From Escherichia coli (GTDB taxonomy: Bacteria; Pseudomonadota; Gammaproteobacteria; Enterobacterales; Enterobacteriaceae): a DNA stretch of 42,047 nucleotides. Shown here piece by piece: positions 3,111 to 42,047 of the stretch. Below the pieces are notes generated by a model that was given only the letters and a program-made list of their open reading frames with translations, had not been told where the DNA came from and ran no database searches. Positions within the stretch are counted from its first letter, which is position 1. Each line of letters starts with the position of its first letter. The translations under genes were made by a program, and so were the position numbers. The DNA lies in the NCBI RefSeq assembly GCF_051903065.1, contig NZ_CP178441.1, one strand, 5' to 3'.

Positions 3111-3875
3111 ATGGCTATGAAAGTATTGGTTACAGCAAATCAAAAAGGTGGTGTTGGCAAGACTTCCACCCTGGTTCATCTGGCATTTGATTTTTCAGAA
3201 CGAGGCAAGCGGGTTGCTGTAATCGATATGGATACCCAGGGCAACGCCTCTTTTACCCTGAAACAGTTCTCGTCCGGCATTAAAGCGAATGAAATGTGGG
3301 GCGAGATCGAGCCAACTCGCTTTACCCAAATGCCTGAGAGCGGAATTTCTCTCATTGAGTCAGATATTCAACTAGCAAACGTAGAAAAATTAAATCTGCC
3401 GGAAATGGTGAAGCAGTTCCGCCATAACCTGCAGCAGCTGGCGGACAGTGGCTTTGACGTCTGCCTGATTGATACTGCGCCTACGGTTAACAATGCGCTT
3501 ATAGTTGCGCTGGCGAGCGCTGATTTTGTGGTATGCCCTATTGAGCTTGAGGTGTACTCAATTCAGGGTATTAAAAAAATGCTGACCACTTTCACCCAGG
3601 TGAAACGCAAAATGAACAGCAAGCTGGAATTTATTGGTATGGTTCCAAGTAAGGTAGATGGCCGCAATCCTCGCCATGTAAACCACCTGCAGGAGCTGCA
3701 GACGGCCTACCCTACGTTAATGGTTCCTGTGTCTGTCGGGTTGCGAAGCAGCATTGCTGATGCACTGGCTTCACATGTCCCTGTCTGGAAAATCAAGAAG
3801 ACAGCAGCACGTAAAGCCAGCCAGGAAATGAGAGCACTGGCCTGTCATGTTTTTACTAAGATGGAGATTGCATAA
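3111..3875 (+). CDS. incC: IncC / ParA-family partition ATPase
   Basis: Deviant Walker A KGGVGKTS and a ParA-like fold signature. Immediately precedes the ParB homolog, with stop/start overlap. Confidence 0.85.
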   Translation: MAMKVLVTANQKGGVGKTSTLVHLAFDFSERGKRVAVIDMDTQGNASFTLKQFSSGIKANEMWGEIEPTRFTQMPESGISLIESDIQLANVEKLNLPEMVKQFRHNLQQLADSGFDVCLIDTAPTVNNALIVALASADFVVCPIELEVYSIQGIKKMLTTFTQVKRKMNSKLEFIGMVPSKVDGRNPRHVNHLQELQTAYPTLMVPVSVGLRSSIADALASHVPVWKIKKTAARKASQEMRALACHVFTKMEIA

Positions 3876-4888
3876 TGACTAAAAAAAATTCTTCCGGCCT
3901 TGGCCTTGATACCGTTGGTGATCTCTCCGACTTTCTTGATGCGTCTGCAGGTGCTGAGGGTAAACCACTGATGCTGGACGTTGATGCGATTGATCCCGAT
4001 CCTGAACAACCGCGTAAGCAGGACAACCCAGGGTTCTCAGAGGAATCCATTAAGGAGCTGGCTGATACCATTAAAGCGCGTGGTGTGAAAATGCCTGTCT
4101 CCGTTCGCGAGAATCCGGAGCAAGCGGGGCGCTATATTATTAACCATGGAGAACGTCGCTGGCGAGCCAGTAAAGTGGCCGGGAAGAAACAAATTCCCGC
4201 TTTTATCGATAATGACTATAGCGACGATGATCAGGTCATTGAGAACATCCAGCGTAATGACCTGACGGCGCGTGAAATTGCCGTACACATTGGCCGCAAA
4301 CTGGCTGAGGGGGTATCAAAATCTCAGATTGCTAAACGGCTTGGCAAGTCGCCAGCGTTCGTAACCCAACACGCAGCGTTGCTGGACCTGCCGGATTGTA
4401 TAGCAGATGCTTTTAATAAAGGTTCAATCCGTGATGTTACCGTAGTTAATGAGCTGGTAACGGCTTACAAGCAAGACCCGGAAGAAGTTCAAAAACTGCT
4501 TGAAGAGAACGAGGGTGAAGACATTACCCGTAGTGCGGTGAAAGTTTTCCGTGAGTTCCTGGACGAAAAAGAATCCAGCAAGCGTGATCCAGACACCATT
4601 GACGCCTTCAATGGCCGTACCGATTCGGAAGCTGCCGAAGATGATACGGACGGCCACGATGATAACGATGTGACCGATAAGGTCCGTAAGACGCCAGAAA
4701 AGGAAACCGATCCTGATAAATTCAAAAAGGCTATTGTTATCGTTGAGTACCTGGGGGAGCAGGGCCGCCTTATCCTGACCAAGCGCCCAAGTGAAGAAGG
4801 GCTTGCCTGGATTAAGTTTGATTCAACTGGTGTAGAAGAAGAGCTAAATCTCGAAAACGTGAAAATAATTTGCCTTATTGAAGGATAA
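3875..4888 (+). CDS. korB: KorB / ParB-family DNA-binding partition and global regulator protein
   Basis: ParB box HGERRWRAS and HTH segment SKSQIAKRLGKSPAFVTQH. Eleven cognate 13-bp OB palindromes are present on the replicon. Confidence 0.85.
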   Translation: MTKKNSSGLGLDTVGDLSDFLDASAGAEGKPLMLDVDAIDPDPEQPRKQDNPGFSEESIKELADTIKARGVKMPVSVRENPEQAGRYIINHGERRWRASKVAGKKQIPAFIDNDYSDDDQVIENIQRNDLTAREIAVHIGRKLAEGVSKSQIAKRLGKSPAFVTQHAALLDLPDCIADAFNKGSIRDVTVVNELVTAYKQDPEEVQKLLEENEGEDITRSAVKVFREFLDEKESSKRDPDTIDAFNGRTDSEAAEDDTDGHDDNDVTDKVRKTPEKETDPDKFKKAIVIVEYLGEQGRLILTKRPSEEGLAWIKFDSTGVEEELNLENVKIICLIEG

Positions 4889-25624: not shown

Positions 25625-26239
25625 ATGAAAATAGCGCGAATATATTTGCGGGTTAGTACAGACGAACAAGATTTAACCCGGCAAAATGAAATTATTGAAA
25701 ATGCCAGGAATAATGGATTCTATGTTGCCGGTATCTATAAAGAAAAGGCGTCCGGTGCAAGAGCTGACCGCCCGGAACTGCAACGTATGATTGATGATCT
25801 GCAGCTAGACGAAGTAGTTATTGCAGAACATATAGATCGTATCAGTCGTTTACCGCTCGATAGTGCGTTAGCGTTAATAAACTCTATAAAAGAGCGGGGA
25901 GCGAAGCTCGCCATTCCCGGTATTGTGGATCTTACCGAACTGGCAAACGCTCAATCCGGTGTCGCGAAGGTCGTTCTGGAATCTGTTCAGGATATGTTAC
26001 TCAAAGTTGCCCTACAGTTGGCAAGGGATGAGTATGAAAACCGTCGTAAACGCCAGAAAGAGGGTATTGAGCTGGCTAAACGGCAAGGCCGGTATCAGGG
26101 GCGAACTGCAAATCTACGGCTCCATAAACGCATCATTGAGTATCGTTCAAGGAAGACGAGTATTGCGGAAACAGCGAAACTTTGTGAATGTAGCGTTAGT
26201 CTTGTAAAAGCTGTATGGTCTAAACATAAAAATAAGTAA
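25625..26239 (+). CDS. serine recombinase (resolvase/invertase family)
   Basis: Catalytic N-terminal motif YLRVSTDEQDLTRQ and a C-terminal HTH. Typical length of about 200 aa. Confidence 0.85.
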   Translation: MKIARIYLRVSTDEQDLTRQNEIIENARNNGFYVAGIYKEKASGARADRPELQRMIDDLQLDEVVIAEHIDRISRLPLDSALALINSIKERGAKLAIPGIVDLTELANAQSGVAKVVLESVQDMLLKVALQLARDEYENRRKRQKEGIELAKRQGRYQGRTANLRLHKRIIEYRSRKTSIAETAKLCECSVSLVKAVWSKHKNK

Positions 26240-38897: not shown

Positions 38898-39272
38898 ATG
38901 AAAAATCTTAATCGTTTTCAGTTTATCGGAAATCTAACAAAAGACACAGAGTTACGGTATACAGCAAAAAGCACACCAATCGCAATTTTCGATATAGCGG
39001 TTAACGGGAGCTATAAAGATCAGGAAACCGGTGAAATTAAGGAATATACCGACTTTTTCCGCATCAAGGTATGGGGTAAGGCTGCAGAAAACGCTGCAAA
39101 GTTCCTAGGGAAAGGCTCGCAGGTCTTTGTAGAAGGTTCTATGCGTAACACCCAGTATGAATCAAACGGCCAAAAAGTGTATGGCATCGATTACATTGCA
39201 GAGAATATTCAGTATTTAAATATAAAATCCCCGGCAAGCAGTTCCGCAGTTGCAGGTAAGAAAACTGATTGA
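38898..39272 (+). CDS. ssb: single-stranded DNA-binding protein (OB fold, no acidic tail)
   Basis: SSB-like OB-fold sequence. Position upstream of trfA as in RK2. Confidence 0.75.
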   Translation: MKNLNRFQFIGNLTKDTELRYTAKSTPIAIFDIAVNGSYKDQETGEIKEYTDFFRIKVWGKAAENAAKFLGKGSQVFVEGSMRNTQYESNGQKVYGIDYIAENIQYLNIKSPASSSAVAGKKTD

Positions 39273-39346: not shown

Positions 39347-40225
39347 ATGAAGAATGACAATAATAATTCTGAACTTGAAAAGCTAAAAAAGGCAGCGCTT
39401 GATCAGCGCTCCAGAATGGCGAATGAAGGGCAGACAGAGAAGCAACTGACGCTATTTGACATTGCACCATGGCCGGATTCGATGCGGGCATTACCTAACG
39501 ATTATGCTCGTTCTGCTCTGTTTACTGTCAAGAATAAACGTCAGCCCCGTGAAGCACTGCAGAAGAAAGAGATTTTCCACATTAATAAAGATGTGCGGAT
39601 CACCTATACCGGGCTTGAGTTACGTGCTGATGACGATGAACTTGTGTGGCAGCAGGTTCTTGAATACGCCAAAAGGAAACCAATGGGTGAACCTATTACC
39701 TTCACGTTTTACGAACTTTGCCAGGATCTAGGCTGGTCTTATAATGGTCGTTATATAGAAAAGGCCGAGGAGTGCCTAACACGCCTACAGGCAACAGCCA
39801 TGCAATTTATTTCTGAGCGTGTCGGTCAACTGGAGTCTGTTTCATTGATTGGTCGCTTTCGCGTTCTTGACCGTGGGAAACGGTCGTCAAGATGTGAAGT
39901 CATCATTGATAAAGAGATGGTTTTGCTTTTTGCAGGTGAGCACTATTCAAAGTTTGTGTGGGAGAAATACCGTAAACTTTCACCTACAGCTCGCCGCCTC
40001 TTTGATTACTTTGGTTCTCACCGGGAGCCATATCCTATGAAATTAGATACATTCAAGATGATGTGTGGCTCGGAATCCGACCGCCTGAAAAAGTGGCGAG
40101 AGCAGGTTAATAAAGCATGTGCTGAGCTTAAAGATAGTGGGTTAATTCATAGTGCTTGGATAGATAAAGATCGTATTCATTGCAAACGAACTAACGATGC
40201 CGCAGCGAGGAATGGTGACACTTGA
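39347..40225 (+). CDS. trfA: TrfA replication initiator (iteron-binding Rep)
   Basis: Very close to recalled RK2 TrfA (LFDIAPWPD, ITFTFYELCQDLGW, KYRKLSPTARR). Cognate iterons follow immediately. Confidence 0.9.
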   Translation: MKNDNNNSELEKLKKAALDQRSRMANEGQTEKQLTLFDIAPWPDSMRALPNDYARSALFTVKNKRQPREALQKKEIFHINKDVRITYTGLELRADDDELVWQQVLEYAKRKPMGEPITFTFYELCQDLGWSYNGRYIEKAEECLTRLQATAMQFISERVGQLESVSLIGRFRVLDRGKRSSRCEVIIDKEMVLLFAGEHYSKFVWEKYRKLSPTARRLFDYFGSHREPYPMKLDTFKMMCGSESDRLKKWREQVNKACAELKDSGLIHSAWIDKDRIHCKRTNDAAARNGDT

Positions 40226-40540
40226 GGGGCACATATTTTTTTTATGACAGTTGAGGGGCGCTTTATTGCGCCCTTCTTTGTTTAGGACGAGTTTAGCCCG
40301 CACGAAATTTTGTTTAGGCGTATAGAGCTTAACCAGACGTTAGAATTATCCCCTTAATTTGTGGATAAGTCTGTTAATATCCCGGTAAAGATACGACATT
40401 TAAGGGGCGGAAAGGTGACACTTGAGGGGCGCTATTATGACATATGAAGGGCGCTATCATGATATTTGAGGGGCGGAAAGGTGACACTTGAGGGGCGCTA
40501 TTATGACATATGAAGGGCACTATCATGACATTTGAGGGGC
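40216..40540 (+). repeat. oriV iterons: nine copies of TGACA-N-TTGAGGGGC-like 15-17-mers (two at 40216..40259; seven at exact 22-bp spacing from 40394 to 40540)
   Basis: Repeat sequence matches the RK2 iteron consensus. 22-bp periodicity read directly. The first iteron overlaps the trfA stop codon. Confidence 0.85.
40360..40368 (-). promoter_or_regulatory. DnaA box (TTATCCACA on the minus strand); a second near-consensus box at 40544..40552
   Basis: Exact 9-mer consensus read between the two iteron groups. Confidence 0.55.
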
Positions 40541-40680
40541 GCTTGTGGATATGATTTTCCATGTTTTTCATATTGATACAGTTGTTTTCCACAACCCTCT
40601 AACCAGATCTTAACCGATCTTTTAACCGATCTTTTAACCATTTCTAACCAAAAGAAATAACCTGTTATTTTAACCGGCGT
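40541..40680. other. oriV A+T-rich region with tandem AACCGATCTTTT-like repeats (candidate DNA unwinding element)
   Basis: Approximately 12-13-bp direct repeats between 40601 and 40672, immediately after the iterons. Confidence 0.5.
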
Positions 40681-40800
40681 CATAGACGCCCCCGAAGGGG
40701 GGAAACCCCCCTTCTCAATCCCACCCGGCCGCAAGCGGCCTCCCATCCCCCCAGGGGCAAGCCCCTCGACCGCAAGCGGTCTTCACCCCAAATTTTTCTC
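40681..40800. other. oriV G+C-rich segment with G/C runs and two copies of CCGCAAGCGG
   Basis: Read directly. RK2 oriV has an analogous G+C-rich block after the A+T-rich region. Confidence 0.45.
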
Positions 40801-41298
40801 ACTCGCTTCGCGAGCTTAGGCCGCTTCGCTCTGCCAGAGATAAATCTCTGGCCAACCACACCAACCAACGTGCAAAACATTCAATTCTTAAAAATTCCTC
40901 ACCAAAACAGCTTGATAAGTACTCGCTTGAATTACCAAGCACACTTCGAAATTCCGTATTCGCTATAAACTCGAAAAGTTTTACACCAAGGAAAAGCCGT
41001 TTAAGGGGTTCCAAGCCGGAAACGGGGTTTGAGGGCCAACCGTACGAAAACGTACGGTAAGGGGGCCGCTTGGCATTCGGAAAATAAACCACGTTAAGAC
41101 TATTTTTTAGCCAAAAGACTTTTAGAAATCGCCAGAATGGCGGGACAACAGCAGTTTTGGTGTCCGAAATCGTACAATTTTTACGTTCAGTAAGTTAGCT
41201 GGCCTGGATGTAACCATCCGTTCAACTCAATTCTCTTGGCGTGGGAAAATTTCCGAATTCCAAGCTGATCCCTGCTACGGCTCCATCAATAATAATGC

Positions 41299-41327
41299 TT
41301 GAACAATAGGACAAAATGTCCTATTAT
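41299..41327 (+). promoter_or_regulatory. klcA promoter TTGAAC-17-TATTAT overlapped by KorC-type operator TAGGACAAAATGTCCTA (41307..41323)
   Basis: Hexamers plus a perfect-arm 17-bp palindrome. Same geometry as the promoter at 1246..1275. Confidence 0.6.
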
Positions 41328-41376
41328 GTGTTTGAAGGCCGAGTATATCACTCAGGTCAAATACCGGAGAACTCCG

Positions 41377-41844
41377 ATGAATAATGAAGTTATCGTTACT
41401 GCTCGTAAACTTACAGATTATGAAGAACGCCTGATGTTTATGCCGAAATTCTTCGGCCAATATTGGCTTTTTGTGGAAAACCACACTTATAACTGGATGC
41501 GTAAATTAAGTCCTGAAAATAAAAGCCAATATTTAAGTAGTGCGCTGGATAAAATTGAAGCCCATTACGATGGTGGTGAGTGGGATTTTTATGAACTTTC
41601 AAATGGTGGTTATTTTATGGCACCAAACAGCCGTGAACATTACCGTATTTCTGTCCAGGGTAATTACTTTGACGGTTTGTTAAGCGCAGAAGCTGCAGGT
41701 ATGGTGGCAACCAGTTTTGTGCTGGCCCAGCTTGCTAATTCTAATCTGCCATTTTCAGAAAAATGCTGTGCTTATTATCATCAGCTGTTTGATTACGCCA
41801 GCGGGCATCAAGAATATGCGCAGTTCCGTGCTGCCATCGATTAA
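41377..41844 (+). CDS. klcA: KlcA (ArdB/KlcA-family antirestriction protein); ORF track start 41299 is an extension through the promoter
   Basis: Similarity to recalled RK2 KlcA (...YELSNGGYFMAP..., AEAAGMVATSFVLAQLA). GGAGA RBS before the ATG at 41377. Confidence 0.8.
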   Translation: MNNEVIVTARKLTDYEERLMFMPKFFGQYWLFVENHTYNWMRKLSPENKSQYLSSALDKIEAHYDGGEWDFYELSNGGYFMAPNSREHYRISVQGNYFDGLLSAEAAGMVATSFVLAQLANSNLPFSEKCCAYYHQLFDYASGHQEYAQFRAAID

Positions 41845-41891: not shown

Positions 41892-42047
41892 ATGTCCAAA
41901 CATTATCCTGGCGATGACTCTCGCGATCAGCAAATGGAAGCCATTGCGCAGCAACTGCCGGACGACCATCGCATTCTTGACGTGGCATACTCAGCGCTAA
42001 TTGATTTGAATAAAGCCTGTATGACCGGCGATCCGCAACAGCGTCAT
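41892..42047 (+). CDS. klcB: 5' part of the klcB-like gene (runs off the window end; in frame with 1..963 if the molecule is circular)
   Basis: AGGGGG RBS and ATG at 41892. ORF is open to the last base of the window with an exact number of codons. Confidence 0.5.
   Translation, partial: MSKHYPGDDSRDQQMEAIAQQLPDDHRILDVAYSALIDLNKACMTGDPQQRH

Follow-up and report, generated by a model that had tools for sequence, protein, structure and literature searches.

The oriV-klcA region of a pCFSA664-2-type IncP/P-1 plasmid from Escherichia coli: sequence analysis of an RK2-type origin and of the transposon remnants beside it

Among the closest described counterparts of the replication region analysed here are the vegetative origins (oriV) of the IncP plasmid RK2/RP4 and of R751-type plasmids. 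In RK2, iterons 1-4 act in copy-number control, the DnaA boxes form a cluster of four, and the minimal oriV ends at a G+C-rich block, beyond which a distal flank and an inverted iteron 10 are located. The region in question lies on a stretch of 42,047 bp from Escherichia coli (contig NZ_CP178441.1), which in its full length is referred to as the window, and comprises the initiator gene trfA, the adjacent oriV and the spacer leading to the antirestriction gene klcA. A related branch, IncP/P-1 clade II, was described by Hayakawa et al. 2022 (PMC9499019). According to that paper, clade II is the enterobacterial, lower-GC branch of the group, encodes the short TrfA (trfA2) alone, and includes pCFSA664-2, pMCR_1511, pHS102707, pEN3600 and pDS1; the 17-bp direct repeats (iterons) of IncP/P-1 origins have the consensus TGACA(G/C)(A/T)TGAGGGGC. 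Three clade II plasmids, pDS1, pMNCG080-1 and pMNCG082-1, yielded mini-replicons composed of ssb, trfA and oriV that are maintained in E. coli, not in Pseudomonas putida. The region described here very probably represents an oriV of the clade II pCFSA664-2 type and, between it and the klcA promoter, a spacer scarred by transposons. All of its parts are of known kinds, namely a clade II IncP/P-1 origin, a remnant of IS101, a Tn3-derived miniature element (TIME) and a KorC-regulated promoter. Minor new details are a base-level map of the origin, distal hairpins conserved in structure, and an abundant TIME family that apparently has not been catalogued.

An RK2-type origin on a clade II plasmid

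The 2.1 kb around oriV are 100% identical to pCFSA664-2, a plasmid from Salmonella, and to some ten plasmids of E. coli and E. fergusonii with sizes of 41-42 kb. All of these identical plasmids are conjugative; their relaxase is of the MOBP type and their mating-pair formation system of the MPF_T type. With pCFSA664-2 assigned to clade II (PMC9499019), this identity identifies the window as a pCFSA664-2-type plasmid and member of IncP/P-1 clade II, with which it has the trfA2-only trait and the enterobacterial host range in common. Since klcB is cut by the window ends (1-963 and 41892-42047) and thus split over both of them, the window corresponds to an entire plasmid circle, whose 42,047 bp exceed the length of pCFSA664-2 (41,696 bp) by 351 bp. 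A wrap-around of the 41,696-bp circle was considered and rejected, the window ends showing no overlap at that period.

A matrix built from the nine iteron copies was run on the entire window and returned exactly nine matches of at least 8 bits, all on the plus strand and with 22-28 bits each; after mononucleotide shuffling, a window contained 0.77 matches with 12 bits or more. The nine are arranged as a pair at 40216-40261 (iteron 1, 40216-40232, 25.3 bits; iteron 2, 40245-40261, 25.6 bits; matrix matches starting at 40217 and 40246) and as an array of seven at 40395-40542, whose members start at 40395, 40417, 40439, 40461, 40483, 40505 and 40527, i.e., at exact 22-bp spacing, and which by homology to RK2 would form the core TrfA-binding array. 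Tandem Repeats Finder assigned to this array a period of 22 (6.7 copies) as well as a period of 66 (2.2 copies at 95%), the latter reflecting a recent 66-bp duplication that covers three iterons at 95% identity. In the ~80% identical relatives pPN143 and pMCR16_P053 (comparison sequence L012, 1679-1826), iteron pairs alternate with a 44-bp period. The differing periods indicate that the two lineages reached or kept their seven copies through separate duplications. Under the same matrix, RP4 displays 1+3+5 iterons plus one inverted copy (20-27 bits), and the layout of pLME1 (IncP-1beta) is similar. The inverted copy, iteron 10, is present in RP4, pLME1, pMLUA4, pYKBL037 and pSM0227-02, and absent from the clade II relatives L002, L003 and L012; in the window, no minus-strand match of even 2 bits was detected within 40000-41400.

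The sole perfect DnaA box of the window (TTATCCACA, 40360-40368, minus strand) is located 27 bp before the seven-iteron cluster, and two boxes with one mismatch each (ATATCCACA at 40544, minus strand, and TTTTCCACA at 40585, plus strand; together within 40544-40593) lie between the iterons and an A+T-rich region. The DnaA boxes of RK2 occupy the same relative position. The A+T-rich region (40596-40680, plus strand, ~34% GC), the putative site of unwinding, contains seven TAACC repeats of roughly 12 nt with the repeat unit TTAACCGATCTT in 2.5 perfect copies; the seven TAACC motifs within 40600-40675 are spaced by 10-13 nt, compared with 0.11 motifs expected. At the equivalent position, five TAA(A)CC motifs are present in RP4, and by motif and position the region is homologous to the TAA(A)CC 13-mer region of RK2, from which its presumed role in unwinding is adopted. 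Next follows the G+C-rich block (40681-40795, plus strand; 67% GC versus 45% for the window), which ends in CACCCCA. Over ~105 nt it shares 81% identity with RP4 and 90.5% with pLME1. These values far exceed those for the remainder of the region, and no other part of the IncP oriV is as well conserved in these alignments. The order of DnaA box, in-phase iterons, A+T-rich repeats and G+C-rich block is the same as in RP4 and pLME1.

By every feature that can be tested on the sequence, the inverted iteron 10 excepted, the region is an RK2-type oriV. Everything an initial annotation of this DNA had described, here the nine RK2-type iterons with seven at 22-bp spacing, the DnaA boxes, the repeats and the G+C-rich block, is present where it had been placed and far beyond chance, and no further matrix match of at least 8 bits exists in the 42 kb. 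Common to the window, to RK2/RP4 and to R751-type origins (with pLME1 as proxy) are direct iteron copies of the type TGACA(C/G)(A/T)TGAGGGGC, a 22-23-bp spacing within the iteron cluster, the preceding DnaA box, the succession of TAACC region and G+C-rich block, the location of ssb-trfA on one side and of klcA with its KorC operator on the other, and a distal flank with two hairpins and a GTTTTACNCCAAGG box. Unlike RK2/RP4 and R751-type plasmids, the window has a 2+7 instead of a 1+3+5 layout, lacks the inverted iteron 10 and contains one perfect DnaA box, where RK2 has four. In the window, iteron 1 is moreover placed on the trfA stop codon and not ~270 bp or more downstream, the short TrfA alone is encoded, and the overall GC content is 45%. 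In the available part of the clade II description (PMC9499019), neither the stop-codon overlap nor the 66-bp iteron duplication nor the transposon remnants are mentioned.

By analogy to RK2, the short TrfA produced from the adjacent gene would bind the seven in-phase iterons, and host DnaA would bind the box at 40360 together with the weaker boxes at 40544 and 40585. Both proteins would then open the TAACC-repeat region for loading of DnaB, the opening being bounded by the G+C-rich block. Iterons 1 and 2 are by position the analogue of RK2 iterons 1-4 and would most likely serve copy-number control as well, by TrfA-mediated pairing of origins.

The G+C-rich block is followed by a distal flank (40796-41018, plus strand) belonging to the conserved backbone, with 99-100% conservation in sibling plasmids and invariant blocks across clade II (alignment A3). 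This flank harbours hairpin 1 (CTCGC-TTC-GCGAG, 40802-40814), hairpin 2 (GCCAGAGA-TAAA-TCTCTGGC, 40833-40852), a box of the GTTTTAC(N)CCAAGG type (GTTTTACACCAAGGA, 40978-40992) and a degenerate iteron-like sequence (GCCGTTTAAGGGGTTC, 40996-41011), which with 4.4 bits is the best extra candidate in the tail of the region. The same order of elements after the CACCCCA end, i.e., a short GC hairpin whose loop measures 3-4 nt, a hairpin with an 8-bp stem and then the box, was found in RP4 (L010, 1860-2070), pLME1, pMLUA4, pYKBL037 and pSM0227-02; in clade I plasmids, the inverted iteron 10 follows ~25 nt past the box. The divergent pCCBH28525_KPC has hairpin 2 and the box variant GTTTTTACGCCACAAGG, and lacks iteron 10. 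The arms of hairpin 2 read CCAGGCGC/GCGCCTGG in RP4, pLME1 and pMLUA4, CGGCAAAG/CTTTGCCG in other clade II plasmids and GCAAAGGG/CCCTTTGC in pCCBH28525_KPC, so that together with those of the window the 8-bp stem is kept across at least four unrelated sequences (L010, L011, L026-L029 and the window). This conservation was read by eye, the automatic alignment across IncP subgroups (A4) being out of register. The common order of elements identifies 40796-41018 as the homologue of the segment with which the extended oriV of RK2 and R751-type plasmids terminates distally. To our knowledge, no function has been assigned to the hairpins or the box. It is conceivable, if rather doubtful, that the flank represents a functional module of IncP origins, such as a priming or fork-handling signal, and that clade II dispensed with the iteron 10 following it. 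The flank is the only part of the tail for which a role related to the origin may be considered.

trfA and the stop codon inside iteron 1

The gene upstream of the origin, trfA (39347-40225, plus strand), codes for an initiator of the short TrfA2/TrfA-33 type with 292 amino acids and is annotated as trfA in the identical plasmids. The protein matches the Pfam family TrfA (PF07042) with E = 1.2e-144 over residues 26-281 and is 66% identical to IncP-1beta TrfA (alignment A2). Its TGA stop codon (40223-40225), which is the TGA within TGACACTTGAGGGGC, falls inside iteron 1 (TGACACTTGAGGGGCAC, 40216-40232), in line with the initial proposal that oriV directly abuts trfA and that iteron 1 extends over the last trfA codons. 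Overlap and 2+7 layout recur in pPN143 and pMCR16_P053, and on this distribution the overlap is a trait of the clade II lineage. In pLME1, the first iteron begins only 272 nt past the trfA stop codon. Clade II TrfA possesses 11 residues beyond the ...HCKR end of the IncP-1beta protein (alignment A2); this tail is poorly conserved apart from its last three residues, G-D-T, which are conserved because the iteron sequence encodes them. In the simplest reading, the overlap is a side effect of compaction: trfA and iteron 1 would ancestrally have been separated by ~270 bp, and after loss of this gap the reading frame would have run to the TGA that every iteron contains.

A consensus terminator scan indicated a terminator-like hairpin downstream of the stop codon (40253-40286, plus strand; GAGGGGCGC-TTTATT-GCGCCCTTC followed by TTTGTTT). 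The hairpin proper spans 40253-40276, its 5' arm is formed by the 3' half of iteron 2, and a T-run follows. The number of matches in the region was not above that in shuffles, and an assignment of the hairpin as the end of the ssb-trfA transcript is suggestive only. TrfA bound to iterons 1 and 2 might be imagined to feed back on trfA, as a roadblock or by modulating this terminator, in a loop absent from classical IncP-1 plasmids. While the persistence of the overlap across lineages diverged by ~20% and the contribution of iteron 2 to the hairpin would fit such a loop, we consider it unlikely: binding at the extreme 3' end could not alter the full-length TrfA message much, the trfA promoter is already governed by KorA and KorB operators, the terminator calls are no commoner than in shuffled sequence, and a C-terminal extension that is unconserved except for its iteron-encoded residues fits neutral read-through. 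The proposal of the initial annotation that the overlap would couple initiator binding to the end of the initiator's own gene likewise finds no support in these data, and compaction remains the preferred explanation of the overlap.

Transposon remnants between oriV and klcA

Directly beyond the conserved flank, a remnant of IS101 (41019-41061, minus strand) was recognized, consisting of the target site GAAAC (41019-41023) and the 38-bp right inverted repeat (41024-41061). IS101 is a non-autonomous Tn3-family TIME of 209 bp from pSC101, mobilised by Tn1000/gamma-delta (PMC13367494, PMC4133298). Compared with positions 209-172 of the IS101 sequence (PMC13367494, Table S2), the stretch 41024-41061 (GGGGTTTGAGGGCCAACCGTACGAAAACGTACGGTAAG) is identical at 37 of 38 positions (97.4%). 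The CCGTACG-AAAA-CGTACGG hairpin at 41040-41057, correctly noticed in the initial annotation, is, on this match, a part of the right inverted repeat of IS101, which contains a palindrome of the pattern CCGTACG-NNNN-CGTACGG. The sibling plasmid pSTEC2018_607-e (L015), collinear with the window up to the junction, carries a full 209-bp IS101-like element at the same position, flanked on both sides by GAAAC and identical to IS101 at 187 of 209 positions (89.5%). The left junction of the window (agccgGAAAC followed by GGGG) is the same, and of the element its first 38 bp alone are present. The full set of IS101 characters (209 bp, two 38-bp repeats of the gamma-delta type, 5-bp duplication) is thus found in pSTEC2018_607-e and not in the window, in which only one terminal repeat is left; the window sequence is accordingly a remnant rather than a member of IS101.

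The adjoining 212 bp (41061-41272, plus strand) are bordered by an intact left repeat GGGGGCCGCTTGGCATTCGGAAAATAAACCACGTTAAG and a mutated right repeat (GGGA...CAGC) and are, judged by termini and relatives, a degenerate copy of a TIME with a res-like core. Searching plasmids with the tail yielded ~1,800 records, with the longest matches on 41057-41179. Family copies of 286-288 bp reside in ColBM/ColV, IncI-type, IncFII, IncFIB and IncFIA/FIC plasmids (alignment A1); they start with GGGG(T/G)CCGCTTGGAATTCGGAAAATAAACCACGTTAAG, end with the inverted counterpart ...CCAAGCGGACCCC, and their borders are identical in at least six unrelated contexts. In the window, motifs of the type GGGG...ACGNTAAG occur twice, at 41024 and 41061, and nowhere else. 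Relative to the family, the window copy has lost 74 nt internally, and its right end, intact in the family copies, has GGGA in place of GGGG and CAGC in place of CCGC, though still recognizable as a repeat. One resolvase-type half-site, TGTCCGAAA at 41161-41169, is left in this copy and is the only one of the plasmid. No Tn3-family transposase (tnpA) is encoded in the window. Among the elements compared, IMU and TIME244 have the closest terminal repeats (92-95% over 19-27 nt), and the interior is unrelated to those of IS101, IMU, TIME244, MITESen1 and MITEKpn1. Identity with a named TIME was rejected on these grounds for all five, and as far as this comparison extends the family is apparently uncatalogued.

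The family resembles other Tn3-derived TIMEs in its small size (50-500 bp class), its 38-bp repeats GGGG...ACGTTAAG, the lack of a transposase, the res-like interior, identical borders and a location nearly always on plasmids. It also forms a long stem-loop, as is characteristic of TIMEs (PMC4133298): as single-stranded DNA, the region 41060-41273 is predicted to fold with -49.5 kcal/mol and z = -5.7 (minus strand, z = -4.7), because the terminal inverted repeats of the TIME pair with each other. More than 5,000 of the 72,556 PLSDB records match the family and 740 hold at least 80% of the element, all genera listed among the matches belonging to the Enterobacterales. Matches, fragments included, were also detected in 1,558 of 5,426 complete E. 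coli genomes. Of the individual sites, 2,070 are plasmid-borne and 37 chromosomal, and hardly any of them has an annotation in RefSeq. The family is thereby far commoner than named TIMEs, which were reported from no more than 2.3% of Enterobacteriaceae genomes.

Two larger elements are related to the family. A unit of 853 bp in the E. coli plasmid NZ_CP146668.1 (L019, 4992-5844) is built solely as inverted repeat-res-tnpR-inverted repeat, with repeats of the Tn3 type, and encodes a serine resolvase of 196 amino acids (Pfam Resolvase, E = 8e-38). It is the enterobacterial equivalent of TIME-RES, a portable recombination module known from Pseudomonas. The same left end as in the TIME precedes its gene, inverted TGTCCGAAA...TTTCGGACA sites are located between repeat and gene, and the homology to the TIME ends at the centre of the first site, directly after TGTCCGAAATCG. 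The Klebsiella pneumoniae plasmid pKpVSI78_1 (L025) carries an autonomous Tn3-family transposon (tnpR, res, tnpA) with a 95% identical repeat and the same res half-site, which makes it a candidate for the mobilising helper. In plasmids of IncI/IncFIB type (L007 and L008, ~3860-3900), at least four tandem GATAACAA octamers adjoin the TIME downstream of a parA-like operon and may constitute a partition site.

The spacer ends at klcA (41377-41844, plus strand), the first gene of the backbone past oriV, which encodes an antirestriction protein of the ArdB/KlcA type (Pfam Antirestrict, E = 1.4e-25; antirestriction annotation in the identical plasmids). A promoter scan placed its sigma-70 promoter at 41299-41327 (plus strand), with TTGAAC at 41299 and, after 17 nt, TATTAT at 41322-41327. 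The promoter spacer is occupied by a 17-bp palindrome of the KorC operator type (TAGGACAAAATGTCCTA, 41307-41323), which occurs at four sites of the plasmid (41307, 1255, 23482 and 23508; 0.09 expected) and resembles the operator TAGGGCATAATGCCCTA upstream of klcA in RP4 (L010). Conservation among relatives starts exactly at this operator, and by its motifs 41299-41327 is a KorC-regulated klcA promoter. The 25 bp between the TIME and the -35 hexamer (41274-41298) match neither pSTEC2018_607-e nor other clade II plasmids, and the hexamer itself differs between lineages.

As to the capacity of this tail, the initial annotation had seen no convincing open reading frame (ORF) in 40880-41290, and had suggested that the stretch may hold additional origin or regulatory functions. 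The first statement was borne out: only mechanical ORFs of up to 97 amino acids are present, four ORFs over 40377-41092 gave no Pfam match, and the relatives, i.e., the 100%-identical RefSeq plasmids, annotate no coding sequence in 40880-41290. A 58-amino-acid ORF of the IncF copy of the TIME was dismissed as a coding candidate, its frame being broken in the window copy; a known RNA family was likewise rejected, since Rfam searches with the tail and the IncF copy (E <=1) returned chance microRNA and BLV matches only. The second suggestion may hold for the conserved flank up to 41018 and fails from 41019 onward, where IS101 end and TIME begin. An extension of oriV over the entire 40880-41290, with extra initiator-binding or regulatory sites, is accordingly improbable. 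Its support comes from the clade II conservation of 40796-41018, the layout homologous to RP4, pLME1, pMLUA4, pYKBL037 and pSM0227-02, and the weak iteron-like motif at 40996-41011, all upstream of the transposon DNA, whereas close relatives with the same trfA and oriV hold unrelated cargo at the site, no iteron match of at least 8 bits exists beyond the nine, and the minimal oriV of RK2 stops at the G+C-rich block.

Still less can be said for a single-stranded DNA promoter of the Frpo/ssi type in 41060-41273, by which klcA would be expressed early after conjugation, and which had been suspected from the strong fold and the matches in IncF plasmids. The hairpin is located 26 bp upstream of the klcA promoter, and by synteny with RP4 and the RK2 maps, klcA would have the transferred strand as template. 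Frpo elements are, moreover, documented upstream of anti-defence genes, and the long imperfect hairpin thus recalls those of F and ColIb-P9 (PMC11541004). This candidate was nevertheless rejected as very improbable, since ColIb Frpo1 and Frpo2 and F ssiD and ssiE (PMC11541004, supplement) have no BLAST match in the tail at E <=1 and give only chance matches of 13-19 nt elsewhere in the window, stem hexamers are lacking, and the hairpin arms are terminal repeats of the Tn3 family. In addition, the module elsewhere often lacks a downstream gene or is convergent with genes, siblings with the same klcA lack the element, the promoter scan found no -35/-10 pair inside 41061-41272, and klcA is distant from oriT and outside the leading region.

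Least credible of all is that the TIME supplies a res site for resolution of plasmid multimers, for although family copies repeat TGTMCGRAA half-sites like those upstream of the related tnpR, res sites are a known feature of IS101 and of TIME-RES elements, and the plasmid encodes a serine recombinase homologue (25643-26005), the window copy has lost most half-sites with its 74 nt and retains one, the recombinase is just 36% identical to the related Tn3-family resolvase of L019, and sibling plasmids do without the element. The product of 25643-26005 is presumably the plasmid's own multimer resolvase of the ParA type.

For the preferred reading of the spacer as a transposon scar, the following succession is proposed. 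Starting from the plain backbone, IS101 would have inserted at GAAAC, as seen in pSTEC2018_607-e; arrival of the TIME, or a rearrangement associated with it, would then have deleted the remaining 171 bp of IS101 along with ~0.2 kb of the backbone. The resulting state of the tail is common to 16 records. With its right end mutated and its res-like core deleted, the TIME would now be immobile, and in some siblings it would in turn have received an element of the IS91/IS1294 type. Such insertions were observed in siblings including L016 (4273/5959) and L017 (4130), after CTTG (41072) or GTTC (41223), which are tetranucleotides targeted by the IS91/IS1294 family, and in L017 blaCMY-2 follows the inserted element. 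Resistance cargo thus gets into the backbone through the transposon scar. Other clade II plasmids possess genes for DUF905/DUF2543 proteins or higBA and ardR at this spot, and pLME1 a relBE-type pair at the equivalent one; across these plasmids, the gap between oriV and klcA appears as the cargo-insertion hot spot of the clade.

Several points weigh against the interpretation of the region as a whole. What DnaA boxes, A+T-rich region and upstream iterons would do is carried over from RK2; the flank 40796-41018 is conserved and has no assigned function, so that part of the tail may matter for the origin after all; and the succession of steps by which IS101 would have lost most of its length is reconstructed. 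Furthermore, unlike in typical TIMEs, matching 5-bp flanks were found in none of eight contexts of the element (0/8). Past transposition of the TIME, as opposed to recombinational spread, is only suggested by its termini and by its many contexts, and the missing duplications are consistent with later recombination at the element.

Backbone context and relevance

The gene order around the origin follows the IncP canon, with trbB and a trbA-like gene (both minus strand), ssb, trfA, oriV, klcA, klcB and korC. The gene ssb (38898-39272) was recognized by its Pfam SSB match, and korC (964-1224) encodes a protein 98% identical to annotated KorC. At the trfA promoter, a KorB operator (38819) and a KorA operator (38851) are located. 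In total, eight perfect KorB operators (TTTAGCSGCTAAA; 4959, 6653, 14088, 22123, 23899, 30388, 38342 and 38819) and two perfect KorA operators (GTTTAGCTAAAC; 2694 and 38851) occur in the plasmid, indicating that the whole IncP global regulatory network has been kept in this low-GC enterobacterial clade.

Replication biology as such gains little from the present region, its origin being of the textbook RK2 type and its plasmid of a kind already sequenced and classified. Its spacer illustrates where cargo lands in these plasmids, i.e., between oriV and klcA, as IS101, TIME, IS1294-blaCMY-2, higBA-ardR and DUF905/DUF2543 cassettes. The TIME is common, is left blank by annotation pipelines, and can mislead structure-based screens by its long-hairpin fold. 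The base-level map of the origin, with its 2+7 iterons, 66-bp duplication, loss of iteron 10 and stop codon in iteron 1, could guide incompatibility or curing designs directed at enterobacterial IncP plasmids with mcr-1, blaKPC and blaCMY-2.

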